In this document: in pieces, positions 1 through 23,125 of the stretch
Numbering within the stretch: position 1 is the first letter of the stretch
How the letters are laid out: each line of letters begins with the position of its first letter
NCBI GenBank assembly: GCA_044224905.1
Contig: JBGAJN010000001.1
Coordinates: forward strand, 129,110 to 193,109
Source: Limisphaerales bacterium
Lineage (GTDB): Bacteria; Verrucomicrobiota; Verrucomicrobiia; Limisphaerales; JBGAJN01
Direction of reading: 5' to 3'
Length of the DNA: 64,000 nt
Program-made: the position numbers and the translations under genes
Notes under the pieces: model-generated
What the model saw: the letters and a program-made list of their open reading frames with translations, nothing else
The model's database searches: none
What the model was told of the DNA's origin: nothing

Positions 1-372
1 GTGGCATAAGAGCCGGACCAACTTAAAAAGCAGGAGCCCATTTGCGCAGTGGATCGCGATGTTCACCGCCCGAAAGCCTGCCGTCGTGAATCCGCCGATC
101 GCGTAGTTGAGATAGAAGGTGAGGTAGGTGAACGGCCGCAGAATGAAATTCGTCGAGAGGTCGGGATCAAAACCGAGCGCGGCGGACTTTCGGGCGAACT
201 CAACAAAATGTGCCGGGTAAGCGAAACTGTTGAAGTCGCGGAAAAGCGGATTGTCGATCACGTAGATGTGATCGTCGAAGGCGAACGGAAAATGCAGCGT
301 GAACCCGTAGAGCGAAAGGCAAGTTGAAACGATCAACGCGTATGCGAAATAGTTCCAGCGAGCGGAGTTCAT
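1..372 (-). CDS. TMTC-like GT-C membrane glycosyltransferase, N-terminal part (runs off window start); paralog of 406..2250
   Basis: Not in the ORF track. Manual translation from ATG 372 gives MNSARWNYFAYALIVSTCLSLYGFTLHFPFAFDDHIYVIDNPLFRDF...DPDLSTNFILRPFTYLTFYLNY...VNIAIHCAN, which closely matches the N-terminus of the next gene. Confidence 0.85.
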   Translation of the reverse strand, partial: MNSARWNYFAYALIVSTCLSLYGFTLHFPFAFDDHIYVIDNPLFRDFNSFAYPAHFVEFARKSAALGFDPDLSTNFILRPFTYLTFYLNYAIGGFTTAGFRAVNIAIHCANGLLLFKLVRLLCH

Positions 373-405
373 GAAGGGCGGCTCTGGTTAAGCGGCGTGC
401 GGTCG

Positions 406-2250
406 CTAGGGCGTGCCGTCAGCGCGTCGTGCGGTGGCGCCTTCGAGTTGAGTTACAATTTGTTTCGTCGATGGGTCCAAGGGTTCGATTGCCGCCGCCG
501 CGCGGTAATGGCGAAGCGCCAATTCCGGCTCTTTTACCAACCTGTAAAGTTCGCCCAAGGCGAGGTGCCCCATGCGATAGCCGGGTTGGGCGGTTACGGA
601 GGCGCGAAGAGCGGTGATGCTGTTTTGGAGATCGCCCAGTTGAAAGTAAGCTGCGGCTAACTCGTGATAGAGTTTGTAATCAAAGGGCGCGGGTGTGTAT
701 TTGAGCCCGACCAGCCCGATGGCCACCGCCTCCTTGTGTCGGCCAAGATCATTTTCAATCTTTGCGAGATTGCGGTAGGCGATCACGTGATTGGGTTGGA
801 GCGTGATCACCCGGCGAAAACTGTTGGCGGCTTCCGGCAGATTGCCCGATTCGGCGCAGGCCCCGCCTAAATTGATCCAGGGGCGCGGCTTGTTCGGGCT
901 GTTCGCGGCCGTATTCCCCCATAGACTCAGTTCAGATCGCCAAACATTGTTTCGTACGATGGTGGCAGCGCCCAGAAATAGAGCCCAGACGGCAACACCC
1001 CAGATGGCCATGTTGCGCAGCTGTGAGCGAACGGGGAAACGCTCTCGAAGTAAATCGGCGACACATCCCAGGGCAATAAAGATTCCGACGGACGGGAGAT
1101 AAGATCGATGTTCCGCCATCAGATCAGGCAACGGCACCACGCTCGAATCGATGGACAGCGTCAGAAAAAACCAGATGACGCCGCAAAGAATGAGTGACCA
1201 CCTCGCGTCGCTGAGACGCTGCCGACACCAGAAGATTGTACCGGCGATAATGGTCGCAATCGTCAACCCTGAAACAAGGACGCGCCATTGCAGGATGGAC
1301 GTGGACACGGGAAAGTCGGGATCCACGTTGAGGCCGATCGGCACGAAGATCAGTCGCAAGTAGGTTAGAATCACCTGCGGTTGCGTCAGGGCGTAGTGGT
1401 ATTGATATTCTTTGGGGGCGAACGGATCAGCCACACGAAGCGCGGAGCCGAAGTCGACGTTGCCGTCCCTTTGTGCCCACGCCGTTAGTACGATCAGTAT
1501 TGGGATCAATGGCAGGCAGACAAAGTGTGGCCAGGCACGCTTCGTTGCACTTTTCAACGACGTTCCCACAACCAGCCAATCCAGACTCACCAGCATGAAG
1601 GGGGCGGTAAAAACAAATTCCTTCGAGAGCATTCCGAGTATCAGCGCAATGACCGAACTCCAGCGCCAAATCCTCGCCGCGGTTTTGTTGGCCGTCGAAG
1701 TGGAAGCGAAGTGGGCGAAGATCACCGCCAGATACCAGAGCGTGGCGAACGAGGTAAAACGCTGGATGACGTAAGTAACAGATTCAATTTGCAGCGGATG
1801 AACCAGGAAGAGTATCGCCGCCGATGCGGAAATGAAATGGATCGACGCGGCGGGCAGCACCACCTGCCGTCGCGAGTTCCGGAGCAGGTGCGACACGACG
1901 TGGAAGAGGAGAATCGCATTGGCGCAGTGGATTGCGATGTTGACTATCCGAAACCCGGCTGGGCGCAATCCTCCCAAGACGAAGTTGAGGTAAAAGGTTA
2001 AATAGGTGACCGGGCGTAAAATGAGATTTGTGGAAAGATCGGGATCCAATCCCATGGACTTCGCCTTGTTTGCGAACTCTACAAAGTGACCAGGAAACGT
2101 GAAGCTGCGGAAATCGCGGAACAGGGGATTGTCGACGAGGTAGATGTGGTCGTCGAAGACAAACGGGAATTGCAGGGTGAATCCGTAAAGCAACCCACCG
2201 ACCACAATGATGATTGCCCACGCGAGTAACTGAATTCGTTGCGCACTCAT
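406..2250 (-). CDS. TMTC-like (GT-C fold) protein O-glycosyltransferase with C-terminal TPR repeats
   Basis: DD motif after TM1 (FVFDD), RP..YLTF, HPLQIESV, SKE, EHRSYLP and RNNVW motifs; about 11 hydrophobic segments; TPR-like helices at the C-terminus. Confidence 0.8.
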   Translation of the reverse strand: MSAQRIQLLAWAIIIVVGGLLYGFTLQFPFVFDDHIYLVDNPLFRDFRSFTFPGHFVEFANKAKSMGLDPDLSTNLILRPVTYLTFYLNFVLGGLRPAGFRIVNIAIHCANAILLFHVVSHLLRNSRRQVVLPAASIHFISASAAILFLVHPLQIESVTYVIQRFTSFATLWYLAVIFAHFASTSTANKTAARIWRWSSVIALILGMLSKEFVFTAPFMLVSLDWLVVGTSLKSATKRAWPHFVCLPLIPILIVLTAWAQRDGNVDFGSALRVADPFAPKEYQYHYALTQPQVILTYLRLIFVPIGLNVDPDFPVSTSILQWRVLVSGLTIATIIAGTIFWCRQRLSDARWSLILCGVIWFFLTLSIDSSVVPLPDLMAEHRSYLPSVGIFIALGCVADLLRERFPVRSQLRNMAIWGVAVWALFLGAATIVRNNVWRSELSLWGNTAANSPNKPRPWINLGGACAESGNLPEAANSFRRVITLQPNHVIAYRNLAKIENDLGRHKEAVAIGLVGLKYTPAPFDYKLYHELAAAYFQLGDLQNSITALRASVTAQPGYRMGHLALGELYRLVKEPELALRHYRAAAAIEPLDPSTKQIVTQLEGATARRADGTP

Positions 2251-2295
2251 CGGAGCGATTGGAATCCGTTCGGATTGTTCGACGATGGGGCGTTG

Positions 2296-3834
2296 TCAGC
2301 CACGGTTTCGGCGGCGCATGATATTGCGCACAATGAATTGCGGCGCCCGCGTCAGATGCATGTAAATGCGGCCAGCGTACTCAGCAATCAGAGCGAGGAA
2401 AAGAGCTTGGAGTCCGCGGGTGAACCAAATGCTGGCATTGAGCCAGTCCATTGAATCGGGATCTTCGATCGCCGGGCTGATGTAGGCGGTTAGCACGTAC
2501 AGTCCGTAACCAAACCCAATGGTCGTGGTGACCAAGCCGTACAAACCGAGGAGTCGCACCGGATAAAGGGAAAACGCGATGACCATGTTTCCCCACAGCG
2601 CGATTAGCTTTCCGAGTGTGTAGCTTGATTTACCCTCTTTGCGCGGCTCGTGCTGCACTTGCACCACGCCCACTCTTCGGGTGGTGCGTAGGATGATGGC
2701 GTCGAGGTAAGGATCGGGACCGGTGTAATGCACCACTTCTCGCACCAGGAATCGCGACATGACCTTGAAGCTGGATAAATAGAGGTCCCGCGGTTTTCCC
2801 AAGGCGTAGGTGGCCATCCAATTGTGCAGCCGGCTGCCCGCATTCCGGAACGCCGAGTGATGTTTCGTGTCGTAGCGAACGTAAACTACGTCGTGTCCCT
2901 TCTGGATCTCCTCAATCAACCCTTTCACTTCGCCGGGAGGGTTCTGCAGATCGTCGTCCATGATCACGCAGTAGTCACCTTCAGCACAGTTCAAGCCAGC
3001 CATCACCGCGTTATGCTCGCCGAAGTTTTTGGCGAGCATCACGAAATCAACCACGTCCGGGTGCCTCTGATGCAAACGTTGGCAGACGGTTGCCGACCGG
3101 TCGCTGCTGCCGTCATCGACGAGGACAATTTGCAACCGGTATCCTGCGCTGAGCTCCTGAATCAGCTGATTCACCAGATGTTTGATCGTGCCCTCGGCGT
3201 TGTAGACGGGAATAACGATCGAAACTGCCAAGTCAGCGGCGGAGTCGGCAGTTGTCGGCTGGGTAATTGAGGTACCTGTGGTAACGACCTCGCTTGCAGC
3301 ACGCAGGTTCGCAGAGATGGGGTAAGGTGACGTTTCGCTGACGGGTTGGCCGGTTTGCGTGGCCACCGCGTGCGCCGCCCGGGCCGAGAGATAAGGTTTC
3401 CCGGCGGCGACGGAACGAATCGCATCGACGATCTTGTCGGTTGCCTCCTGTTTCATCACGTAGCCGGTGGCTCCGGCCCGCCACGCCCGCTCTGCATAGA
3501 ATACCTCATCGTGAATCGAGAGGACCAGGACCGGCATCTGTGGATGATCCAAACGAAGGGTTTCCACCAACTCGCTGGCCTCATGATGGCCCAAGCTCCA
3601 ATCGACGACGGCGATGTCAGGATTAAGCTGGCGCACGGCTTCGATCGCGGTCCGTTCGCTATCGGCTTCTCCGCAGGTGATGAGGTCGGATTCACCGTTG
3701 ATCAAGGTTGCCAGCCCCGCGCGCACGACGGCGTGATCGTCGACCAGCAGGACTCGCCGACGGGGAAGACCGCTGGCTGGCGACGGGATGGTGCCGGTGC
3801 GTCCGTCGGCTGACCCGCGCAGGATTCTATGCAT
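2296..3834 (-). CDS. Fusion of a NarL-type receiver domain with a GT2 polyprenol-phosphate glycosyltransferase (GtrB/ArnC/DPM1-like)
   Basis: N-terminal LLVDDH, VVDWSL, VLSIH, YVMK; C-terminal SIVIPVYN, VDDGSSD, NFGEHNA, MDDDLQNPP and two C-terminal TM helices. ATG 3834 overlaps the upstream stop (ATGCATAG). Confidence 0.88.
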   Translation of the reverse strand: MHRILRGSADGRTGTIPSPASGLPRRRVLLVDDHAVVRAGLATLINGESDLITCGEADSERTAIEAVRQLNPDIAVVDWSLGHHEASELVETLRLDHPQMPVLVLSIHDEVFYAERAWRAGATGYVMKQEATDKIVDAIRSVAAGKPYLSARAAHAVATQTGQPVSETSPYPISANLRAASEVVTTGTSITQPTTADSAADLAVSIVIPVYNAEGTIKHLVNQLIQELSAGYRLQIVLVDDGSSDRSATVCQRLHQRHPDVVDFVMLAKNFGEHNAVMAGLNCAEGDYCVIMDDDLQNPPGEVKGLIEEIQKGHDVVYVRYDTKHHSAFRNAGSRLHNWMATYALGKPRDLYLSSFKVMSRFLVREVVHYTGPDPYLDAIILRTTRRVGVVQVQHEPRKEGKSSYTLGKLIALWGNMVIAFSLYPVRLLGLYGLVTTTIGFGYGLYVLTAYISPAIEDPDSMDWLNASIWFTRGLQALFLALIAEYAGRIYMHLTRAPQFIVRNIMRRRNRG

Positions 3835-4057
3835 TGTTCCGTTTCTCGCGCGTGAGAGTTTCAAGCGCGACCGCGATGCGTTCCGTGTGAGTTACATATT
3901 TCGCGAGGCGCTCTTCGATTCGTTGCGAGTTTTCCGCTGCGATCTGGCGCATCTCCCTCAACCCTTCGCGGGTTGCCAAGCGACAGAGTATTGCCCCGAC
4001 CGTGACGCCCACGGTGAATGAGATTCCGACTGCGAATGCGTGTAGGTATTCCATCAT
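3827..4057 (-). CDS. Small protein with one TM helix and a coiled-coil-like tail (76 aa)
   Basis: MMEYLHAFAVGISFTVGVTVGAILC then a charged helical tail; its stop overlaps the REC-GT2 start by 8 nt. Confidence 0.65.
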   Translation of the reverse strand: MMEYLHAFAVGISFTVGVTVGAILCRLATREGLREMRQIAAENSQRIEERLAKYVTHTERIAVALETLTREKRNNA

Positions 4058-4207
4058 GATTGAATTGCGTTCCGCCCAACCCCGCCCCGTGGAGCCTGAT
4101 TCGCCATTGCGCGCCACGGCGGGATGGCGCGCATACGCTGGTTCCGTATGACTGGAGAGTAGAATGTCCCCGGTGAAAATGTAATCGGTGGGAGCCCGCT
4201 GGAGGAC

Positions 4208-4246
4208 TGCAGGATAACCCTTAGGGAGTATCAGGAATTTCCCTGA
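4208..4246. promoter_or_regulatory. Putative NarL/LuxR-type response regulator binding sites
   Basis: Inverted repeat TCAGG-N6-CCTGA at 4231-4246 plus a degenerate copy about 23 bp away (4208-4223), upstream of the small ORF/REC-GT2 operon. Confidence 0.5.
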
Positions 4247-4268
4247 GACGGGTCTGCGGAGGAACGGG

Positions 4269-4943
4269 TCAAACCTCGCCGGTTTGCTGTGCCCACTGAA
4301 TGGCGCGTTGCAGCAATTCTCCGCTCGAGTTGAGGTTCAGCTTGACCTTGATGTTGGCGCGGTGGGTTTCGACGGTTTTGACGCTGATGTGCAGGCGGTT
4401 CGCAACCTGTTGAGAGCCGTAACCTTTGCCGATCAGTAGCAGCACCTGAAGTTCGCGATCGGTCAATTGATTGAAAGTCGATTGTCCGGTGGTCTCCCCG
4501 CGACCGGTGACTCGGTTGAGAATGTTTGCTGTAATCTTGTTGCTGACGAAAACGCCTCCGCCCAACACGTGCCGGATCGCTTCCAGAACCTTCTCCGAAG
4601 CTTCGCGTTTCATGATGTAGCCGCGGGCTCCCGCGCGCAACGCACGTTCGGCGTAGAGCGACTCATCGTGCATCGACAGGACGAGCGTGAACACTTGTGG
4701 AAAGCGCGCCTTGAAATCCTTCAGCAGTTCCAAGCCGCGTTCTTCCTTGAGGGACAAATCAATGATCGCGAGGTCGGGATTGGCTTTCTCCGCCAGTTCC
4801 AGCGCAGCGGCGCGATCTTCCGCTTCACCGCAAATCATCAGGTCTTGTTGCTGATTGACGAGTTGGCCAATGCCTTGCCGCAGGAGGGGATGGTCGTCCA
4901 CCAGCAGGATTCGCTTTTTCGATTTGGTTTTGAAATCAGGCAT
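4269..4943 (-). CDS. NarL/FixJ-family response regulator (REC + LuxR HTH)
   Basis: LLVDDH, IIDLSL, LTDRELQVL...ISVKTVETHRANIKVKL. Confidence 0.95.
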   Translation of the reverse strand: MPDFKTKSKKRILLVDDHPLLRQGIGQLVNQQQDLMICGEAEDRAAALELAEKANPDLAIIDLSLKEERGLELLKDFKARFPQVFTLVLSMHDESLYAERALRAGARGYIMKREASEKVLEAIRHVLGGGVFVSNKITANILNRVTGRGETTGQSTFNQLTDRELQVLLLIGKGYGSQQVANRLHISVKTVETHRANIKVKLNLNSSGELLQRAIQWAQQTGEV

Positions 4944-4955
4944 CGGGTTGGCGCT

Positions 4956-6218
4956 TTAATTAAGTGAACTTCGCGGCAACGTGCAAGCGACGACTGTCCC
5001 GCAAGTATCGCCGCGGCGTACGTCCAAGGTGGCCCCGATCGTATGGGCGCGGTAATTCATTATTTCCAGGCCCAGTCCCTTGGAATGCTGGTGTTCAGGA
5101 ATCCCTTGGCCATCGTCGGTTACCGTCATTTGGATCGCGTGATCGTCCAACCGGAGTTCGATCAGGATTGAACTGGGCTTGCCGTGGCGCAGCGCGTTTT
5201 GAACAGCTTCCTGGGCGATGCGGTAGAGGTTGGTCGATGCCGCCTGATCAGGAATCGGAACGAGCTCTGGCGAATGCAGCCAGCATTTCACCTTGGTGGT
5301 CGTGTGGACGGTCTCCGCCAATTCTTTGAGCGCCAGCATCAAACCGGTCGGCTCGTCTGGAACCGGGTGGAGTCCGCGGGTTACCCGGCGGGTCTGTTCG
5401 ATGCTCTCATTGATCAAGCGAGTGATCTGTCCGGCGTCCGTTGCTTCTTGGTCGGTGAGTTTTTGCTGCAGGCTCCGGCTTAGAAGCGAAATCCCGGTGA
5501 GTTGCTGACACACGCCGTCGTGGAGATCCTGTCCAATGCGTCGCTGTTCGCGCTCGCTGATTTCGAGAACTTCCTTTTCGAGACGTTCGCGGTGAGCGAC
5601 GTCGGCCGTGAGAATGATCACGCTTGCCGCCGCCACCAGCGCGGCCAGCAGACTGCCCACAATCACGACGGCGATGGTTCGGCGCGCCACGGATTTCGCA
5701 TAATCATCGCGCTCCGCGAGCAACTCACGTTCGCGGGATTCAATCTCGTCGGTTACGCGACGTAGTTCGTCCATCATCTGCTTGCCCGGACCCGAGATTT
5801 TTGGAACGGCATCAAATCCTTGGAGCTTGCGCGTCTCGATCGTGTGGCCGAGCCGTTGCAGGCGGTTTGTTATCAACTGGCCGAGTTGATCGAGGAGTTT
5901 TTCAATCGCTGGATCTGTCACCAGGTCCCGAAGCATTCTCATGTCCTTGTCCGAATCGGTGACGACGGTGTCGTAAAGTTTCAGAAACGTCTCGTCTCCA
6001 GTGATGATGTAACCCCGGGCTTCGCTCTCGGCGCTCACGGCGTCGCCCAGAACCTCCTGCAGTTTGGTGATGGCTTGGTGGGTTCGAGCCACAATCGCGG
6101 CCGACTCCGCAAATTCCCGAGTGCTTTGAAACGCTACGAAGCCGATCGCGACAAGGGCCAGCAATGCCAGCGTGAATCCGATGGCAACTTTCTGGCTCAG
6201 GTGAGTTTCGATTTTCAT
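4956..6218 (-). CDS. Sensor histidine kinase (TM-CHASE3-TM-HisKA_3-HATPase)
   Basis: CHASE3-like AESEARGYIITGDETFL; H-box EQRRIGQDLHDG; RIAQEAVQNALRH, DDGQG, GLGL. Start chosen at ATG 6218. Confidence 0.92.
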   Translation of the reverse strand: MKIETHLSQKVAIGFTLALLALVAIGFVAFQSTREFAESAAIVARTHQAITKLQEVLGDAVSAESEARGYIITGDETFLKLYDTVVTDSDKDMRMLRDLVTDPAIEKLLDQLGQLITNRLQRLGHTIETRKLQGFDAVPKISGPGKQMMDELRRVTDEIESRERELLAERDDYAKSVARRTIAVVIVGSLLAALVAAASVIILTADVAHRERLEKEVLEISEREQRRIGQDLHDGVCQQLTGISLLSRSLQQKLTDQEATDAGQITRLINESIEQTRRVTRGLHPVPDEPTGLMLALKELAETVHTTTKVKCWLHSPELVPIPDQAASTNLYRIAQEAVQNALRHGKPSSILIELRLDDHAIQMTVTDDGQGIPEHQHSKGLGLEIMNYRAHTIGATLDVRRGDTCGTVVACTLPRSSLN

Positions 6219-6350
6219 GGTTTTGCGAACGCGGATTTGACGTTCCGTGGACGGGCTTTTGGCAAACACGCTTGTCAATCGGGATCAACAAGGCGCTGCT
6301 TCGCTCCTCCAGCCCTGGAGCTCAAGCCCGGATCTCGGGAGCGTAATCGG

Positions 6351-7643
6351 CTAACTCAGCGCTTTCGCTCCGATGTCGCGTCGGCAATGTGCGCCATCGA
6401 AATGGATCTTCTCGACCGCAGCATAAGCTGCAACCCGCGCTTCTGCTAGCGTGGACCGCCAGGCTGTCACACCTAGAACCCGTCCACCGTTCGTCACGAT
6501 CTGTCCGTCCTTCTTCGCCGTGCCGGCGTGGAAAACTTTCGTGTGCGGCAGCGCGTTCGCGGCATCGAGTCCCGCGATGGCTTTGCCCTTCGGATAATTT
6601 CCCGGATAGCCGCCGCTCGCCATCACCACGCAAACGCTCGCGCTGGGGCTCCACTTGAGTTCGATGTTCGCGAGCCGGCCTTCGACGCTCGCGAGCAACA
6701 GTTCAACAAGATCATTCTCCAGCCGCGTGAGATAGACCTGCGTCTCGGGATCGCCAAAGCGCGCGTTGAACTCGAGAATCTTCGGGCCATTCTTCGTGAG
6801 CATCACTCCGGGATACAAGATGCCGCGGTAGTCGATCCCCTCCGCCACGCAGCCGCGCATGAACGGTTCGAGAACTTTCCTCGCCGTCTCGGCGAGTTGC
6901 GCGTCATTCAGAAACGGCGTCGGTGAATACGTGCCCATGCCACCCGTGTTCAGGCCGAGATCGCCATCGAGAGCACGCTTGTGGTCTTGCGACGTTGGAA
7001 AAATCTTCGCCGTCTGGCCGTCGCACAAGGCGTGCAGGGAAACTTCGATGCCTTCGAGAAACTCCTGAATCACCACCCGCGAACCTGCCGCGCCGAAGGC
7101 TTTACTGACCATGATTTCGTCCACGGCTCGATCGGCTTCCGCTTGGTTCGAGCAAATCAAAACGCCTTTGCCGAGCGCGAGACCATCCGCCTTCACCACG
7201 CATTTGCCGCCGAGCGTTGCGCAAAAGGCCTTGGCAGGCCCGGCCTCCGAAAAAGTTCCGGCGGCGGCGGTGGGAATGCCGTATTTCTCCATGAACTTTT
7301 GGGAGAACACTTTTGAGGATTCAAACTGCGCCGCCTTTTGGTTCACGCCCCAAATGCGCAGCCCGTTCTTCTGAAACAAATCCACGATGCCGAGCGCGAG
7401 CGGGTTGTCCGGGCCGACCACCGTGAGATCGACTTTCTGCTCCTGCGCAAACGCGAGCAGCTTCGGCAACTCCTCCGCGCCGATCGCGACGCATTCGACC
7501 AGCGAACCATTCTTCGCGAGCCGTTCTTCGCCGATGCCCGCGTTGCCCGGCGCGCACCACATCCGCGTGGCAAGCGGCGACTGCGCGAGTTTCCACACCA
7601 GCGCATGCTCGCGTCCGCCCGATCCGATGACCAAAAGTTTCAT
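6351..7643 (-). CDS. purD: Phosphoribosylamine-glycine ligase
   Basis: MKLLVIGSGGREHAL, KADGLALGKGV, QDHKR, NTGGMG, EFNARFGDPETQ. Confidence 0.98.
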   Translation of the reverse strand: MKLLVIGSGGREHALVWKLAQSPLATRMWCAPGNAGIGEERLAKNGSLVECVAIGAEELPKLLAFAQEQKVDLTVVGPDNPLALGIVDLFQKNGLRIWGVNQKAAQFESSKVFSQKFMEKYGIPTAAAGTFSEAGPAKAFCATLGGKCVVKADGLALGKGVLICSNQAEADRAVDEIMVSKAFGAAGSRVVIQEFLEGIEVSLHALCDGQTAKIFPTSQDHKRALDGDLGLNTGGMGTYSPTPFLNDAQLAETARKVLEPFMRGCVAEGIDYRGILYPGVMLTKNGPKILEFNARFGDPETQVYLTRLENDLVELLLASVEGRLANIELKWSPSASVCVVMASGGYPGNYPKGKAIAGLDAANALPHTKVFHAGTAKKDGQIVTNGGRVLGVTAWRSTLAEARVAAYAAVEKIHFDGAHCRRDIGAKALS

Positions 7644-7864
7644 TCGCGCACCAATCAATCAGGAACGCGGCGCCCGAGGAAAGGTTTTATTCCGAACGGC
7701 CTCGCACCTTCGAATTCTTCGTCCTACGCAAACTCTTCAGTCTCCAATTGCCGCGCGGCCTCCAAAAAACGGCCAGCCTTGGCCAATGATCGCGAAGCCG
7801 TGCGTCGCGCGGCTCCTATCTTGGGTTGTGGTCCTCAACGTGAGGGCCGGCAACTCGACTCGTT

Positions 7865-10854: not shown

Positions 10855-13587
10855 ATGCACACCACCACGCCGCCACCCACCGACGCCGATCCGTTGCCGC
10901 CACACGCTTCACCTGCCAATCCGCTTCACGCCTTCTTTGCGCCGCGTTCCGTCGCCGTCATTGGCGCGACGGAAAATCCCGGCAGCGTCGGACGCGCAGT
11001 GATGGAAAATCTCCTCGCCTTCTCCGGCCACGTTTATCCGGTAAATCCCAAACGCGCCACGATCCTCGGGCGCGCGGCATTTCCCAGCATCGCCGCCGTG
11101 CGCGCGCCGGTGGATCTCGCCGTGATCGTCACCCCGGCGACGAGTGTGCCCGGCGTCATTCGCGAATCCGCCGCCGCGGGTGTGCGCAGCGCGGTCATTA
11201 TCTCGGCGGGCTTCAAAGAAGTCGGCGCCGCCGGTGCGGAACTCGAGCGGCAAGTGATGGAAGAGGCCCGCCGCGTGCGCATGCGGGTCATCGGTCCGAA
11301 CTGCCTTGGCGTGATGACGCCGCGGCTCGGTTTCAACGCCACGTTCGCCGCCGCGCTCGCGCGTCCGGGCAACGTCGCGTTTCTCAGCCAAAGCGGTGCG
11401 TTGTGCACGGCGATTCTCGACTGGAGCTTCCGCGAGAATGTCGGCTTCAGCGCGTTCGTTTCCGTGGGCTCGATGCTCGACGTTGGCTGGGGCGATCTGC
11501 TCTATCACCTCGCGGACGATCCGCACACGAAGAGCATCGTGTGCTATATGGAATCGGTTGGCGACGCGCGCAGCTTTCTCTCCGCCGCGCGCGAGGTTGC
11601 TTACACCAAGCCCATCATCGTCATCAAAGTCGGCCGCACAGACGCCGCTGCGAAGGCCGCCGCGTCGCACACCGGCTCGCTTACCGGCAGCGACTCCGTG
11701 CTGGAGGCCGCGTTCCGTCGCGTGGGCGTGCTGCGCGTGAACACGATTGGCGAGTTGTTCAACATGGCTGAACTGCTCGCCAAACAACCGCACCCAACCG
11801 GTCCGCGTCTCGCGATCGTCACGAATGCCGGCGGCCCCGGCGCGCTCGCGACCGATCTCCTCGTCACCAGCGGCGGTCAGCTCGCGCCGCTCGGCGATGC
11901 CACGCAGAAGGAATTGAACGCACTGCTCCCGCCGCATTGGAGCCACGGCAATCCCGTGGACGTGCTCGGAGATGCGGATGCCGCGCGTTACGCGAAGGCA
12001 GTGGAGATTGTCAGCCGCGATCCGAACACGGACGGCATGCTCGTCATTCTCACGCCGCAGGCGATGACCGATCCGCTTGGTACCGCCGAAGCCCTGCAAC
12101 CTTTCGCGCACACCGGAAAGCCGCTGCTGACAAGTTGGATGGGCGGCGCTTCGCTCGACACTTCGCGCACGCAGCTCAACGCTGCGGGCATTCCGACCTA
12201 CGATTATCCCGACACGGCCGCGCGCGCGTTTGCGTTGATGTGGCATTACAGCGCCAGCCTGCGACAGATTTACGAAACGCCCACGGCGCTCGCTGACAAG
12301 AATGCTGGCGCCAACATTGCCGCCGCGCTCGAAATCATCGAGCACGTCCGCCGCTCGAAGCGCACGTTGCTCACCGAGTTCGAATCGAAGAAACTCCTCG
12401 CCGCGTATGGCATTCCCACGGTCGAGACCCACATCGCCCGCAGCGAAGACGAAGCGGTCGCCGTCGCGGAGAAATTGGGATTCCCCGTCGCGCTGAAACT
12501 CCACTCCGAAACACTCACGCACAAAACCGATGTCGGCGGCGTGCAGTTGAACATCCGAACTGCAGCAGGCGTGCGGCACTCGTGGCAATCCATCCAGAAG
12601 TCGGTGACTGAGAAGGCGGGCGCGCAACATTTCCTCGGTGTGACCGTGCAGACCATGGTGCCGCGCGAGGGCTACGAACTCATCTTCGGGTGCAGCATTG
12701 ATCCGCAATTCGGCCCCGTGCTCCTCTTCGGCGCCGGCGGCCAGTTGGTGGAGGTCTTGAAAGACAGCGCCATCGCGTTGCCACCACTCAACGCCACGCT
12801 TGCACGGCGTTTGATGGAACAGACGAAAGTTTTCACCGCGCTTCAGGGCATTCGTGGTCGCAAACCAATCAACGTCGACGGCATCGCGCAGTTGCTGGTG
12901 CGGTTCAGCCAGCTTGTCATCGAGAATCCGCGCATCGCCGAGCTCGACATCAATCCGCTCCTCGTCTCGACCGAGCGCCTCATCGCCCTCGACGCGCGCG
13001 TGGTGCTGCACCCGCCAGAAATTGCCGACGAACATCTCCCGCGTCCGGCGATTCGCCCGTATCCCACGCAGTACGTCTCGGCCGCGAAGTTGCGCGATGG
13101 CACAGCGCTAACGCTGCGGCCCATCCGAGCCGAGGATGAGCCGCTCATGGTGAAGTTTCACGGCGGGCTGTCGGAGCGGAGCGTTTACCTGCGCTATTTC
13201 ACTCCGTTGCCATTGAGCGAACGGACCGCGCATCAGCGGCTCGCGCGTCTGTGCTTTGCCGATTACGACCGCGAACTCGCGCTGGTTGCCGAGCACCGCA
13301 ACACGCACGGAGCATCGGAAATCGCCGGCATCGCAAGGCTCATCAAGGAACACGGCGTGAACGAAGCCGAGTTTGGTGTGATTGTTGTGGACGCGTGGCA
13401 GGGTCGCGGCGTGGGCACGGTGTTAATGGAGAAACTCGTGCACACGGCGCGCGAGGAAAAGCTCGCGTGCGTGCGCGGCGTCATTCTCGCCGAGAACCAC
13501 GAGATGCTCGATCTCGCTCGTCGACTTGGCTTCGCGCTTCATCGCACGGAGGACACGAACGAGTTTGAGGCCGTGTTGAAATTCTAA
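10855..13587 (+). CDS. Bifunctional ADP-forming acetate-CoA ligase family protein / GNAT acetyltransferase (Pat/Pka-like)
   Basis: [40 protein letters not shown], then a C-terminal GNAT domain (WQGRGVG). Confidence 0.92.
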
Positions 13588-14473: not shown

Positions 14474-15529
14474 TCAGACGACCTTCGCCTCGCCCTTGCC
14501 TTTGATGACCATGCCGATCAACCACGCGTCGTGTTTCGCGGCGCGGATCGATTTGAGCACGGCGTCGGCTTTGTCGGCGGCGACGATGGTGACCATGCCG
14601 ATGCCCATGTTGAAGACCTGGTAGAGTTCGGCATCGGGCACGCCGCTCTTGGCCTCGATCATCTTGAAGATCGGGAGCATGTCCCAGGAACCTTTGCGGA
14701 TGACCACGTCGCACTTGTCGGAGAGCACACGGGGAATGTTGTCGACGAACCCGCCGCCGGTGATGTGCGCGAAGGCTTTCACGGCGTTCGCCTTGCCCGG
14801 CTTGTTGAATTTCTTCACCAATGTCTGCACGAGCGGACCGTAGCTGACGTGAACTTTCAGCAACTCATCGCCAATGGTGTTGCCGAGCTCGGCAACGCGG
14901 CTCGTGGGCTTAAGCTTCAGCTGTTCGAAGAAGATTTTCCGCGCGAGCGAATAGCCGTTGGTATGGAGGCCGGACGCCTTGATGCCGATGACGACGTCGC
15001 CGGGCTTCACGGTTTTCTGGCCGTTGAGCATGCGCGCCTTCTCCACGACGCCGACGATGGTGCCGCTGACGTCGTATTCGCCGGGCTGGTAAAAGCCGGG
15101 CATCTGCGCGGTCTCGCCACCGATGAGTGTGCAGTTGTTCGCCGCGCAACCGCGTGCGAAGCCCTTGATGATCTCGGTGAAAACGTGCGGCTCGAGTTTG
15201 CCGGTGCCGAGATAATCGAGGAAGAAGAGCGGTTCCGCGCCGAGCACGGCGATGTCATTAACGCAGTGGTTCACCAAGTCCTCGCCGATGGTGTCGTGGC
15301 GATCCATCGCGAAGGCGATCTTCAACTTGGTGCCAACGCCATCGACGGACGAGACGAGGACGGGCTGCTTGTACTTCTTCGTGTCGAGGGCGAAGAGTCC
15401 GCCGAAACCGCCAACCTTGCCGAGGACTTCGCGGCGATGGGTCGAGGCGAGAAGTTGCGGAAGCGTGGCCTTCATCTTGTTGCCAAGATCGATGTCCACA
15501 CCGGCGGCTGCGTATGCTTTTATCTTCAT
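14474..15529 (-). CDS. purM: Phosphoribosylformylglycinamidine cyclo-ligase (AIR synthase)
   Basis: YAAAGVDI, GGFGG, DGVGTK, GGETAQMPG, SGLHTNGYSL, FNMGIG. Confidence 0.97.
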   Translation of the reverse strand: MKIKAYAAAGVDIDLGNKMKATLPQLLASTHRREVLGKVGGFGGLFALDTKKYKQPVLVSSVDGVGTKLKIAFAMDRHDTIGEDLVNHCVNDIAVLGAEPLFFLDYLGTGKLEPHVFTEIIKGFARGCAANNCTLIGGETAQMPGFYQPGEYDVSGTIVGVVEKARMLNGQKTVKPGDVVIGIKASGLHTNGYSLARKIFFEQLKLKPTSRVAELGNTIGDELLKVHVSYGPLVQTLVKKFNKPGKANAVKAFAHITGGGFVDNIPRVLSDKCDVVIRKGSWDMLPIFKMIEAKSGVPDAELYQVFNMGIGMVTIVAADKADAVLKSIRAAKHDAWLIGMVIKGKGEAKVV

Positions 15530-15962: not shown

Positions 15963-17432
15963 TTAAAGGAGCTTCGGCTGCAATTCTTCCTTCGCCAACG
16001 ATTCGCCGAGGCTCTCCACGCGGGCGCGACGGCGTTCCATGATCTGCTTGTCCACGGTCGGATCGTAAGGCACAGGATAATTGCCGTCGTAGCAGGCCAT
16101 GCAGAAACCTTCCTTCGGCAGACCAGTCGCCTTGACCATGCCTTCCTTCGAAAGGTAACCGAGCGAGTCCGCGTTCAAATACTTCCGGATCTCGTCGATC
16201 GAATAATTCGCCGCCATCAACTTTTTGCGGTCGGGGAAATCGATACCGTACACGCACGGATTCATGTGCGGCGGGCAACTCACCAGCACGTGAACTTCCT
16301 TCGCGCCGGCTTCCTTCAAATTGTTCACGCGCGTCTTGCACGTGGTGCCGCGCACGATCGAATCGTCCACGATGATCACGCGCTTGTCCTTCACCAGCTC
16401 GGGGATGAGGTTCAACTTCACGCGCACGTTGAAATCACGGATGAGCTGCGACGGCTGCAAGAAACTGCGGCCGATGTAATGGTTGCGCACGAACGCCATC
16501 TCGTAGGGTACGCCCGATTCCATCGCGTAACCGAGCGCGGCGGAGTTGCCGCTGTCAGGCACGGGAACGACAATGTCGGCTTTGATGGGGAACTCGCGCG
16601 CGAGCTGGCGCCCCATTTCCACGCGGACTTTGTAAACGTTGCGATTCGAAATCGTGCTGTCGGGGCGGGCGAAATAAACGTATTCGAAAATGCAGAACGC
16701 GCGGCGTTGCTGCTCGGGAAACGCTTGAATGCTCCGCAGACCGTTCTTATCGATGATGACGATCTCGCCCGGTTCGACATCGCGGACGAACTTCGCGTGG
16801 ATCAAATCAAACGCGCACGTCTCGCTCGAAAGCACCCAAGCACCATCCACCTTGCCGATCGAGAGCGGACGGAACCCATGCGGATCACGCACGCCGATCA
16901 ACTCATTCTCAGTCATGATGACGAGCGAGTAGGCGCCTTCGATACGGCGGACGGTTTCGATGAGATTGTTTTCGCTATGATTGAAGGCCGGCTGCGCGAG
17001 GAGATTGAGAATGATCTCGCTGTCCACGGTGGTCTGGAACATCGAGCCCTTGCCTTCGAGTTCGTCGCGAACTTTCGCGGCATTGGTCAGGTTGCCGTTG
17101 TGCGCGATGGCGATTTGGCCGCGCCAGCAATTGCCCGTCAGCGGCTGCGCGTTGCGGATGTGCGAGGAACCGGTCGTCGAATAGCGCGTGTGACCAACGG
17201 CCATTTTGCCAACGAGCTTGCACAAGATTTCGCTGTCGAAAATCTGCGAGACGAGGCCCATGCCTTTGTGCTCGCGGAATTGTGTCCCGTCGCTGGTGAC
17301 GATGCCGGCGCTCTCCTGACCGCGGTGTTGGAGCGCGTACAGCCCGAAGTACGTCAGCTCAGCCGCGTTCGGGTGACCGAAAATGCCGAACACGCCGCAA
17401 TAATGTTTTGGGTAATACTCGGAACTCTGCAT
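15963..17432 (-). CDS. purF: Amidophosphoribosyltransferase
   Basis: Propeptide then CGVFG, LQHRGQE, GHTRYST, HNGNL, PVPDSG, IVDDSIVRGTT; Fe-S cysteines (CPP, FCMAC). Confidence 0.98.
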   Translation of the reverse strand: MQSSEYYPKHYCGVFGIFGHPNAAELTYFGLYALQHRGQESAGIVTSDGTQFREHKGMGLVSQIFDSEILCKLVGKMAVGHTRYSTTGSSHIRNAQPLTGNCWRGQIAIAHNGNLTNAAKVRDELEGKGSMFQTTVDSEIILNLLAQPAFNHSENNLIETVRRIEGAYSLVIMTENELIGVRDPHGFRPLSIGKVDGAWVLSSETCAFDLIHAKFVRDVEPGEIVIIDKNGLRSIQAFPEQQRRAFCIFEYVYFARPDSTISNRNVYKVRVEMGRQLAREFPIKADIVVPVPDSGNSAALGYAMESGVPYEMAFVRNHYIGRSFLQPSQLIRDFNVRVKLNLIPELVKDKRVIIVDDSIVRGTTCKTRVNNLKEAGAKEVHVLVSCPPHMNPCVYGIDFPDRKKLMAANYSIDEIRKYLNADSLGYLSKEGMVKATGLPKEGFCMACYDGNYPVPYDPTVDKQIMERRRARVESLGESLAKEELQPKLL

Positions 17433-17590
17433 CGCGCGCGGAAACTGAACCGGACGCAGGCACACTTGGCAAGCGGAGAATGGGAAAAGCTGGCTATGGG
17501 CCCCAATCCAAGCGGAAAATCGGCGCGCAAAAACCGCGTTTCGGCGAAATGACGTCGAAAGGACGAATCGGAGCCGTTCTACGGGGCCGA

Positions 17591-21742: not shown

Positions 21743-23125
21743 TCAGCGCTTCAACTGGGTCTCGAGATAGGTGACGACCTGGCGAACGTTCGTATCGACG
21801 GACATCCGGTCTTTCACCAGGCGGCACGCGTGCAACACGGTGCCGTGATCGCGTCCACCGAAGGCTTCGCCAATGGTGTTGAGCGAGCTCTCGGTCATCT
21901 GCCGCGCGAGGAACATGGCGATCTGCCGCGGGAACGCGATGTTCTCGGGGCGACGTTTGCTGGTCATGTCGGCGAGGCGGATGTCGAAGTGTTCGGCGAC
22001 CTTGCGCTGGATGCTGTCGATGCTGAGGAGGAAGCGGCCTTCCTCGTGGAGAATTTCGCGGAGCAAGGTTTCGACGACGTCGACGGTGAGCTTGCGGCCA
22101 GTGAGCGTGGCGTAGGAGGCGACGCGGATGAGCGCGCCTTCAAGGCGACGGATGTTCGCGCGAATGCGGTGCGCGAGGAAGTTCATCACGTCATCAGGGA
22201 GGTCGACGTTGAGGGACTTCTGTTTCTTGCGGAGAATCGCGAGACGGGTTTCCACGTCGGGCGGTTGCATGTCGGTAACGAGACCCCATTCGAAACGCGA
22301 GACGAGGCGGTGTTCGAGATTTTGGATTTCGCTCGCGGGCCGATCACAGGTGAGGACGATCTGTTTGTGCGATTCGTGGAGGGCGTTGAAGGTGTGGAAG
22401 AATTCTTCCTGAATGCGTTCCTTGCCGGCGAGGAACTGGATGTCATCGATCAACAGGACGTCGGTCTGCCGATATTTTTTACGGAAGCGCGCGAGGTTGT
22501 TGTTCTGAATGCCGTCGATGTACTCGTTGGTGAATTTCTCGGAGGAAACGTACGCGACGCGCGCGCCCTTCTTGTGATCCGCGACATATTGACCAATCGC
22601 GTGCAGCAAATGCGTTTTGCCCAAACCGACGCCGCCGTAAAGGAACAGCGGGTTGTAGGATTTGCCGGGCGATTGCGCGACGGCCAACGCCGCCGCGTGC
22701 GCGAAGGTGTTGTTGTTGCCGACGACGAAGGTGTCAAAGGTGTTCTTGGGATTGAACGAGAGTTCGCGCTCCGTCGAGCGATCGTTCGGCGCGTGGTCTT
22801 CCTTCGCGGCTGCAACCTTGGGCCGTGACTTGGTTGCGGGAGCAACCGCGGGAGCCGGAGCCGCAACTGCGGTGGACACTTGGAACTTCACCTTGAACGT
22901 CCGACCACTCGCGTGAGTGACGACGTCCTGGATGAGTCCGAGATAATTGTCCGTCAGCCAGACCTCGCAAAAGTCGTTACCGACTTCGAGCGTCAGATGA
23001 TCGCCATCCACGCCCAGCGCGCGGATCGGGGAAAACCAGAGATTAAAGATATCTGGCTTAAGCATCGAACGGAGCATTTCCTGCGAGGAAGCCCAAATTT
23101 GTTCAGCATTCTGTTGCATTTCCAC
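21743..23125 (-). CDS. dnaA: Chromosomal replication initiator DnaA
   Basis: YNPLFLYGGVGLGKTHL, LLIDDIQF, QEEFFHTFN, FGGRDHGTVLHA. Start is GTG 23125 or ATG 23119. Confidence 0.98.
   Translation of the reverse strand: MEMQQNAEQIWASSQEMLRSMLKPDIFNLWFSPIRALGVDGDHLTLEVGNDFCEVWLTDNYLGLIQDVVTHASGRTFKVKFQVSTAVAAPAPAVAPATKSRPKVAAAKEDHAPNDRSTERELSFNPKNTFDTFVVGNNNTFAHAAALAVAQSPGKSYNPLFLYGGVGLGKTHLLHAIGQYVADHKKGARVAYVSSEKFTNEYIDGIQNNNLARFRKKYRQTDVLLIDDIQFLAGKERIQEEFFHTFNALHESHKQIVLTCDRPASEIQNLEHRLVSRFEWGLVTDMQPPDVETRLAILRKKQKSLNVDLPDDVMNFLAHRIRANIRRLEGALIRVASYATLTGRKLTVDVVETLLREILHEEGRFLLSIDSIQRKVAEHFDIRLADMTSKRRPENIAFPRQIAMFLARQMTESSLNTIGEAFGGRDHGTVLHACRLVKDRMSVDTNVRQVVTYLETQLKR

Follow-up and report, generated by a model that had tools for sequence, protein, structure and literature searches.

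The stretch of DNA analysed here (the window) is a 64,000 nucleotide segment of the genome of a Limisphaerales bacterium of the Verrucomicrobiota (contig JBGAJN010000001.1, positions 129,110 to 193,109 of the forward strand). At its beginning lies a cluster of genes, all on the minus strand, encoding a sensor histidine kinase, a NarL/FixJ-type response regulator and membrane glycosyltransferases, one of which, a family 2 glycosyltransferase (GT2), carries an additional response regulator receiver domain (REC) at its N-terminus (REC::GT2). The order of transcription begins after purD (6351-7658) and the features of the cluster are collected in Table 1. Positions are window coordinates unless prefixed; L009 is the DNA fetched before the window and G000 the genome from which the window comes. 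An earlier note on this DNA had described six co-oriented genes, and this description agrees with the domains detected by Pfam, the last gene, a second paralog of the membrane transferase, leaving the window.

Table 1. Features of the glycosyltransferase cluster in order of transcription (aa, amino acids; TM, transmembrane segment; ORF, open reading frame).
Feature	Position	Strand	Basis
Sensor histidine kinase, 440 aa: TM, periplasmic CHASE3, TM, HisKA_3, HATPase_c	4956-6278	-	Pfam, hydrophobic segments
NarL/FixJ-type response regulator, REC and GerE helix-turn-helix, 224 aa	4269-4943	-	Pfam, NCBIfam
Small ORF, one hydrophobic helix and charged helical tail; probable start ATG 4057 (76 aa)	3827-4117	-	ORF list, hydrophobicity
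REC::GT2 fusion, 522 aa from TTG 3864, 512 aa from ATG 3834 (database form)	2296-3864	-	single ORF, Pfam
REC domain of the fusion, NarL-type, phospho-acceptor Asp in VVDWSL	3415-3753	-	PF00072, 77.8 bits
ArnC/GtrB-type polyprenyl-phosphate glycosyltransferase: GT-A with DDDLQN, juxtamembrane helices, two C-terminal TM helices	2311-3225	-	profile against solved structures
GT-C-fold membrane glycosyltransferase with C-terminal TPR, 614 aa (first paralog), partner of the GT2	406-2250	-	AlphaFold, VIA-align, hhalign, Pfam TPR
Second, divergent GT-C/TPR paralog, first 124 codons; 612 aa whole	1-372, whole gene L009:16644-18482	-	ORFs, alignment

The kinase stop and the regulator start are 12 nt apart. 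The gap of about 400 nt between the regulator and the REC::GT2 gene contains the small ORF, whose stop overlaps ATG 3834 of the fusion by 8 nt. Beyond the second GT-C/TPR paralog, the same strand of L009 carries a gene for a 251-aa class-I S-adenosylmethionine (SAM) methyltransferase, on which the genes of a NAD-dependent SDR epimerase/dehydratase and a DegT-family aminotransferase converge from the opposite strand. These sugar-modifying genes lie just outside the window and were missed by the earlier note.

The kinase matched CHASE3 with 97 bits, HisKA_3 with 45 bits and HATPase_c with 53 bits, and its hydrophobic segments (residues 31-49 and 204-222) are found on either side of CHASE3. The regulator matched Response_reg with 87 bits and GerE with 58 bits, so that a HisKA_3 and HATPase_c kinase adjoins a REC and GerE regulator, the arrangement characteristic of a NarL/FixJ two-component system. 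Eight HisKA_3 kinase cores were detected in the genome, every one beside a NarL regulator, and the CHASE3 of this kinase is the only one detected in the genome with the query used. Two further NarL-type regulators (G000:C1:306193 and G000:C3:844254), whose RECs belong to the same subfamily, are orphans with no adjoining HisKA_3 kinase.

The two membrane glycosyltransferases

The REC::GT2 gene is a single open frame, with no stop or frameshift between Response_reg (78 bits, residues 38-150) and Glycos_transf_2 (PF00535; 102 bits, residues 215-375). By hand count 64 of 120 homologues among the matches listed carry both PF00072 and PF00535, and several of the homologues have already been auto-named 'NarL/FixJ family response regulator/glycosyltransferase' by JGI. 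When a profile of 31 fusions was compared with solved structures, the C-terminal 310 residues aligned best with ArnC 9hwj (E 7.5e-61, chain residues 8-316 of 322), followed by ArnC 8vxh and 9bhc (E 1.4e-58), GtrB 5ekp (E 1.9e-45) and DPMS 5mlz (E 1.1e-26). The metal motif DDDLQNPP is invariant in the 31 fusions; the corresponding motifs, in the part of the ArnC study drawn on here, are DADLQN in ArnC, DADLQD in GtrB and DADLQH in DPMS (10.1101/2025.01.29.634835). As the alignment with ArnC, GtrB and DPMS is full-length and the NCBIfam ArnC equivalog NF007986 was not reached (167.3 bits, cut-off 529), the enzyme is to be placed in the ArnC/GtrB class and not among the ArnC orthologues. The class proposed in the earlier note, enzymes making polyprenol-phosphate sugars, is therefore retained, the GT2 half being, as judged by profile comparison, a complete polyprenyl-phosphate glycosyltransferase of the ArnC/GtrB type.

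The AlphaFold model of REC::GT2 consists of two confident domains, with the GT2 helices at 424-452 and 461-495, and a linker (residues 168-197) with a predicted local distance difference test score (pLDDT) below 50, so the receiver appears to be flexibly tethered to the GT2; the predicted template modelling score (pTM) of the whole is 0.58. ArnC is described as a tetramer with a cytosolic N-terminal GT-A domain (10.1101/2025.01.29.634835, the same part), and the fused REC would therefore be cytoplasmic and multivalent, with four copies per enzyme.

Both membrane proteins with C-terminal repeats gave Pfam matches to TPR families only (residues 450-600) and none on the N-terminal domain. The AlphaFold model of the first paralog (pLDDT 91, pTM 0.88) has TPR helices from residue 440. 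When this model was compared with 48,161 chains by VIA-align, the best matches to its first 460 or so residues were GT-C enzymes, namely AglB 3waj (Z 19.0, 340 residues aligned), ArnT 5f15 (Z 18.5, 340 residues) and Pmt1/2 6p2r (Z 18.4, 370 residues), all three with a root mean square deviation of 4.7-4.8, and then ALG12 (Z 17.1), STT3B (Z 17.0) and Pmt4 (Z 16.9). The C-terminal 160 residues of the model matched OGT, MamA and designed TPRs, and Foldseek with the whole model returned TPR proteins only.

Profile comparison gave a similar picture. For 31 members of the family, the first 445 residues were aligned by hhalign with 30 PMT_2 proteins taken from same-class genomes, with a probability of 95.5% in local mode (E 1.4e-8, 189 columns; reversed control 13%) and of 98% in global mode (E 1.8e-12, 363 columns; reversed control 0.1%), the conserved DD of the GT-C/TPR family aligning with D-E of the PMT_2 proteins. 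The Pfam family PMT_2 itself (PF13231) had no match on the GT-C/TPR genes, either in the genome search or in the scans of family members; an 8-sequence profile searched against the PDB sequences with hmmsearch found one chance match (E 1.3) and, when aligned by hhalign with each of three individual PMT_2 proteins encoded in this genome, reached probabilities below 1%. Among the ESM-Atlas neighbours, taken as a lead only, PMT_2 was present in 21-30% of members (score 0.98), and a chordate DUF1736 cluster was found at rank 21 (score 0.93).

The invariant columns of the family are FDDH, LRP, HPLQxE, K-E and AEHR. In the acidic motif, which is predicted to lie in the first periplasmic loop, D33 is invariant in both the 31- and the 8-sequence alignments, and D34 is invariant in the latter and kept in at least 90% of the former. 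The second paralog, 54-55% identical to the first, retains the DD, HPLQxE, K-E and xHR motifs. The motifs given for TMTC in the relevant part of PMC7801869, which are DD in loop 1, a basic residue plus RP, HP..E in TM3/EL2, Lys in EL3 and AER before TM10, could be matched by eye to these invariant columns. The DUF1736 signature of TMTC (PF08409) was not reached: one of eight members gave E 0.011, and the second paralog scored 12.4 bits where the cut-off is 27. The name TMTC-like, given to these proteins in the earlier note, is thus appropriate for fold and architecture, since the modelled proteins have a GT-C fold and a TMTC/TfpW-like arrangement of domains, but membership of the TMTC family, as judged by its signature, fails.

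Conservation of the cluster and forms of the receiver

Related loci were searched by tblastn with the window proteins. Eight loci, the window's own included, could be assessed, so the conservation counts rest on few, related loci. A contig scan contributed L010 to L013, from contigs named Verrucomicrobia, Verrucomicrobiia or Chthoniobacteraceae; L013 has the fusion at the contig end and was not assessable, and the other 76 loci kept match the GT2 part only. L119 (genome G287) reads SDR, DegT, then convergently methyltransferase, GT-C/TPR, REC::GT2, NarL regulator and kinase, as in the window with a single GT-C gene; L120 (G026) has the layout of L119 up to the contig end. The order is rearranged in L011 (REC::GT2, GT-C/TPR, SDR, DegT, kinase, NarL). 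L010 reads kinase, NarL, REC, GT2, GT-C/TPR, methyltransferase and convergent SDR, and L012 reads REC, GT2, GT-C/TPR, methyltransferase and SDR. Unfused GT2 orthologues (64% in G299 and 59% in G330, same order) are found in L121 (G299), composed of kinase, NarL, GT2, GT-C/TPR and methyltransferase, and in L122 (G330), composed of GT2, SDR, DegT, an unassigned multi-span protein and methyltransferase.

The GT-C/TPR gene directly follows the GT2 gene in seven of the eight loci. The methyltransferase and the SDR are each present in 7/8 loci and DegT in 5/8. The CHASE3 kinase and the NarL regulator accompany all five GT-C-bearing loci with sufficient contig (the window's own, L010, L011, L119 and L121), with identities in the latter four of 33-53% for the kinase and 41-69% for the regulator. 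By hand, at least 15 further fused GT2 matches, and a similar number of unfused ones, could be paired with a GT-C/TPR match through equal size of the longest contig; this evidence is indirect and suggests that the GT2 and GT-C/TPR pairing is general in metagenomes. The tandem GT-C paralogs seen in the window are real and particular to this genome: related loci have a single GT-C/TPR copy, which is nearer to the first paralog, so the two copies stem from a local duplication. The small ORF had been counted among the members of the system as a membrane protein; no counterpart of it was seen at the corresponding position in L010, L119 and L121, and in the Pfam scan it gave only a weak ZapG-like match under the cut-off (E 0.006); its membership is doubtful and it is probably a lineage-specific addition, or no gene at all.

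In place of the GT-C/TPR gene, between methyltransferase and DegT, L122 of G330, closest of the relatives whose GT2 is unfused, carries a 691-aa ORF (L122:5473-7548, minus strand) with at least eight hydrophobic segments and no Pfam family, which may be a different, unrecognised membrane transferase.

The receiver of the fusion matched PF00072 well above the cut-off of 30.2 bits and, as had been noticed from the sequence, its phosphorylation residues are intact. In the 31 aligned fusions, which diverge down to 43% identity, the phospho-acceptor D78 (VVDWSL) and S106 (LVLS) are invariant (31/31), as are the Trp and Ser following the phospho-Asp, and the acidic pair D32 and D33 and the lysine K128 are kept in at least 90% (P0001 numbering). 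A maximum-likelihood tree built from 47 RECs groups the 34 RECs fused to GT2 into a single clade (100/100 support) and separates them from every NarL regulator.

Besides its absence in L121 and L122 and its presence on the GT2, the extra receiver occurs in two other forms. In L010 and L012 it is encoded by a gene of its own between the NarL regulator, where the contig includes it, and the GT2. The L012 protein has 134 aa and a frame different from that of the GT2. Both stand-alone receivers have DE in place of DD and a TDISL phospho-site, and in the tree they fall among the NarL paralogs on a long branch. They had been considered as a second, independent fusion to GT2; this was rejected on the ORF listings, which give a separate REC gene. 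In L010 the REC, of 159 aa, and the GT2 are in the same frame, separated by one stop and the 15 nt between it and the GT2 start (L010:10376-10394), which could point to a recent split, to an intermediate of fusion or to translational read-through. A short tandem repeat, translated as ...ATGPGFH.../...SVARDSD... units, is found in the stretch that separates this REC gene from the NarL regulator (L010:9422-9900).

In the remaining form the receiver is found on the N-terminus of the GT-C/TPR protein (P0183, P0191 and P0199, of 779-829 aa; 3/120 among the matches listed). These receivers read VDWSLG and keep the phospho-site positions, and their identity is 54-66% with the GT2-fused clade (62-64% with the window's own), against 42-56% with the RECs of NarL regulators. 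The metagenome scan for loci of these proteins matched REC-like stretches only, and in none of 401 genomes of the phylum did a match reach the REC part. The N-terminus of the GT-C protein is cytoplasmic in TMTC, according to the part of PMC7801869 on topology, and in TfpW, according to the corresponding part of its preprint, so that placement of a receiver there is topologically sound. The best reason, from sequence comparison, to regard the receiver as likely to act on the enzymes of the pathway, and as no accident of annotation, is that a single REC clade is carried now by one and now by the other of two membrane enzymes that follow each other in the pathway.

Proposed pathway and its alternatives

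We read the cluster as an accessory envelope-glycosylation operon of Verrucomicrobiota, ArnC/ArnT- and GtrB/GtrC-like, which is under two-component control and has a phospho-gated donor synthase, and we give this reading a probability of about 60%. The SDR epimerase/dehydratase, in most loci the DegT aminotransferase, and the SAM methyltransferase would tailor a nucleotide sugar in the cytoplasm, and the ArnC-like GT2 would attach the tailored sugar to polyprenyl phosphate on the cytoplasmic side of the membrane. After flipping, the lipid-linked sugar would be transferred by the GT-C/TPR enzyme to a periplasmic acceptor; as there are two GT-C/TPR paralogs in this genome, there may be two acceptors. 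The CHASE3 kinase would sense an extracytoplasmic cue and phosphorylate the NarL regulator, which provides the transcriptional control, and would most likely also phosphorylate the REC carried on the disordered linker of about 30 residues at the N-terminus of the GT2. Phosphorylation-driven dimerisation of the REC, or its docking on the probably tetrameric GT2, would then gate synthesis of the lipid-linked donor, be it positively or negatively. A wider version, in which two-component phosphorylation acts directly on the pathway enzymes and the receiver clade was captured in turn by GT2 and by GT-C/TPR, switching on or coupling both, is plausible to us at somewhat less than even odds.

A number of observations weigh against the phospho-gated operon. 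The REC::GT2 fusion is rare, being present in 3/401 sampled genomes of the phylum (G000, G287 and G026), of which G287 and G026 represent one genus of another class; in 301 genomes of that other class no further fusions were found and only G287, G026 and G299 recurred. The extra REC is absent from L121, which has the same GT2 and GT-C pair, and L122 has a GT2 with neither kinase nor GT-C/TPR nearby; the fused REC is therefore dispensable in these two relatives. The sugar is poorly defined by its enzymes, since the SDR is ambiguous among epimerase, decarboxylase and dehydratase (GalE-like 6e-40, UXS 1e-34, RmlB 3e-34), and the aminotransferase is closer to 3-aminotransferases than to ArnB, with 7b0d (6e-117), DesV, QdtB and WbpE nearest and about 1e-47 for ArnB. 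DegT is absent from 3/8 loci, and the methyltransferase gave weak matches only. No flippase was found: a genome search for the GtrA family (PF04138) at E <= 0.01 was negative, and a flippase of another type is possible.

The remaining points concern the link between receiver and kinase. The earlier note had pointed to a visible similarity of the fused REC to that of the adjacent regulator. The similarity is real (46.1% identity, 123 bits) but not specific, since five other NarL regulators of the genome are equally close (44.6-46.1%, 110-122 bits), and the REC of the adjacent regulator is itself nearer to those paralogs (48-58%). In the tree, the cluster-adjacent NarL regulators form a clade of their own (78/76 support), to which the clade of fused RECs is not sister. 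Kinase specificity is usually read in the alpha-1 helix of the receiver; these helices are similar across all RECs compared, and the sequence therefore yields no kinase specificity. The likeness is at the level of the subfamily only and for this reason is no evidence for a shared kinase, which the comparison of receivers neither supports nor contradicts. The neighbouring CHASE3 kinase is nevertheless the most likely phosphodonor of the fused REC, because it is the sole kinase in the cluster and all eight HisKA_3 kinases found in the genome already stand beside one NarL regulator.

With respect to the acceptor, our analysis leans towards a protein, because the characterised transferases of the GT-C and TPR type, TMTC and TfpW, act on proteins (PMC7801869 and the TfpW preprint, each for the part concerned). 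A non-protein acceptor, such as lipid A, the core of lipopolysaccharide (LPS), O-antigen or another envelope glycan, is a serious alternative, although a minority one in our estimate; the product would then be a signal-induced modification of surface charge or serotype. It is compatible with the proposed regulation, as it concerns the acceptor only. The proximity of the GT2 to ArnC, the high rank of ArnT in the structural comparison of the GT-C domain and the SDR and DegT genes next door speak for it, and Arn is likewise under two-component control. Against it, apart from the proteins modified by TMTC and TfpW, no curated Arn model was reached (ArnC 167 bits against 529, ArnB 207 bits against 631), and the aminotransferase is closer to DesV, QdtB and WbpE than to ArnB.

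A second alternative leaves the pathway as it is and detaches the fused receiver from the neighbouring kinase as its regulatory input: the phosphate could come from another kinase or from acetyl phosphate, or the receiver could act mainly as a sink for phosphate, tuning the NarL branch. The unspecific likeness of the two receivers would fit, as would the two orphan NarL-type regulators, which indicate that partners need not adjoin, and the dispensability of the REC in relatives. We consider it unlikely, given that kinase and NarL regulator stay with the cluster in every locus of sufficient length, even in the rearranged L011, that there is no other kinase in the cluster and that the same REC clade moves between both pathway enzymes, which a pure sink would not need. 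Finally, that the receiver is a structural or oligomerisation module independent of phosphorylation (a pseudo-receiver) would suit the relatives that function without it, L121 and L122, and the undefined relative orientation of the domains in the model, but it is very improbable, since pseudo-receivers usually lose the phospho-site positions and all five are conserved in the 31 fusions and also in the REC::GT-C forms.

Relation to known systems and genomic surroundings

Lipid-linked glycosylation by a GT2 and a GT-C enzyme is textbook knowledge, and to our knowledge envelope glycosylation of the Arn and Gtr type is regulated through transcription only. The proposed operon resembles Arn (PmrF; ArnB, ArnA, ArnC and ArnT under PmrAB/PhoPQ) in the succession of nucleotide-sugar tailoring, polyprenyl-phosphate GT2 and periplasmic GT-C enzyme, and in two-component control. 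It differs in that the cluster showed neither a formyltransferase or deformylase nor ArnE/F, in the TPR repeats of the GT-C protein and in the receiver on the enzyme, as control of Arn is not known to go beyond transcription. With the three-component lipid-linked glycosylation systems GtrA/GtrB/GtrC and CsbB/GtcA/YfhO it shares a GtrB-type GT2 and a dedicated transferase of GT-C fold; the kinase, the regulator, the REC fusion and the TPR on the GT-C protein distinguish it from these, as does the lack of a GtrA-family flippase in the genome search.

For the GT-C/TPR proteins the closest architectures are those of the eukaryotic O-mannosyltransferases TMTC1-4 and of TfpW of Pseudomonas aeruginosa. 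The former share an N-terminal GT-C part of about 11 helices followed by C-terminal TPR and, by eye, several motif counterparts; apart from the signature not reached, the differences are the donor synthase, which here is ArnC-like and not DPM1, and the bacterial host. TfpW, which is set beside our proteins by description and not by sequence, is likewise a bacterial GT-C enzyme with periplasmic C-terminal TPR. In the part of the preprint that describes it, TfpW is a pilin D-Araf glycosyltransferase, modelled on ArnT, whose N-terminus is cytoplasmic and which has 11 predicted TM helices and a DDX motif. Its gene adjoins pilA and, in that description, no kinase or REC is involved; the system described here has no pilin gene.

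A receiver fused to a GT2-family glycosyltransferase has a precedent in MTH_548 of methanogens, a REC with a BcsA-like glycosyltransferase. It is listed in the census by Galperin, in a part of which a REC is seen as putting a metabolic enzyme under signal control (PMC5847659). The MTH_548 type is archaeal and processive-synthase-like (PF13641), with no experimental study, whereas the enzyme here is a polyprenyl-phosphate monosaccharide synthase in a conserved kinase, regulator and GT-C operon, whose REC also occurs alone or on the GT-C protein. No paper retrieved by our literature search deals with an ArnC/GtrB-type enzyme that carries a receiver, or with an operon of this kind. Receivers on metabolic enzymes and GT2/GT-C glycosylation are thus both known, and the receiver on an ArnC/GtrB-type enzyme is the variation.

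If the wider version outlined above is confirmed, it would be the first case of REC-gated synthesis of a polyprenyl-phosphate sugar, and one extracytoplasmic signal would alter surface glycosylation in seconds, through the enzyme, and in minutes, through transcription. A receiver on the committed membrane step, the loading of the lipid carrier, would be a simple model of post-translational control of donor supply, for which loci with no REC, with a stand-alone REC, with REC on GT2 and with REC on GT-C offer a natural comparison set. The cluster is also a relative of the TMTC-type GT-C/TPR architecture that is bacterial, compact in genetic terms and accompanied by an identifiable donor synthase of its own, and as such could help to define what these enzymes recognise.

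A scan of positions 1-7800 for promoters and terminators remained at chance level (3 promoter-like sequences against 2.4 expected, 7 terminator-like against 9.0 expected). Past the SDR and DegT genes, L009 continues with housekeeping genes for an S41 peptidase, a serine hydroxymethyltransferase fusion and rho, and on the other flank the cluster is followed by genes for phosphoenolpyruvate synthase, purM, purF and dnaA. As dnaA (21743-23125, minus strand) is about 16 kb from the cluster and purD, purM (14474-15529) and purF (15963-17465) are scattered around, the glycosylation cluster is located in a housekeeping, origin-proximal region. Three of the surrounding genes have uncommon domain arrangements. 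The window encodes at 10855-13587 (plus strand) a 910-aa ADP-forming acyl-CoA synthetase (CoA_binding, Succ_CoA_lig and ATP-grasp_5) with a C-terminal GNAT domain, which is the architecture of Pat-like protein acetyltransferases. In L009, the 734-aa ORF at L009:10215-12419 (minus strand) is an unusual triple fusion of a low-molecular-weight phosphotyrosine phosphatase, RpiB and serine hydroxymethyltransferase, and rho (L009:8475-10064, minus strand) is extended at its N-terminus by about 115 residues ahead of Rho_N.

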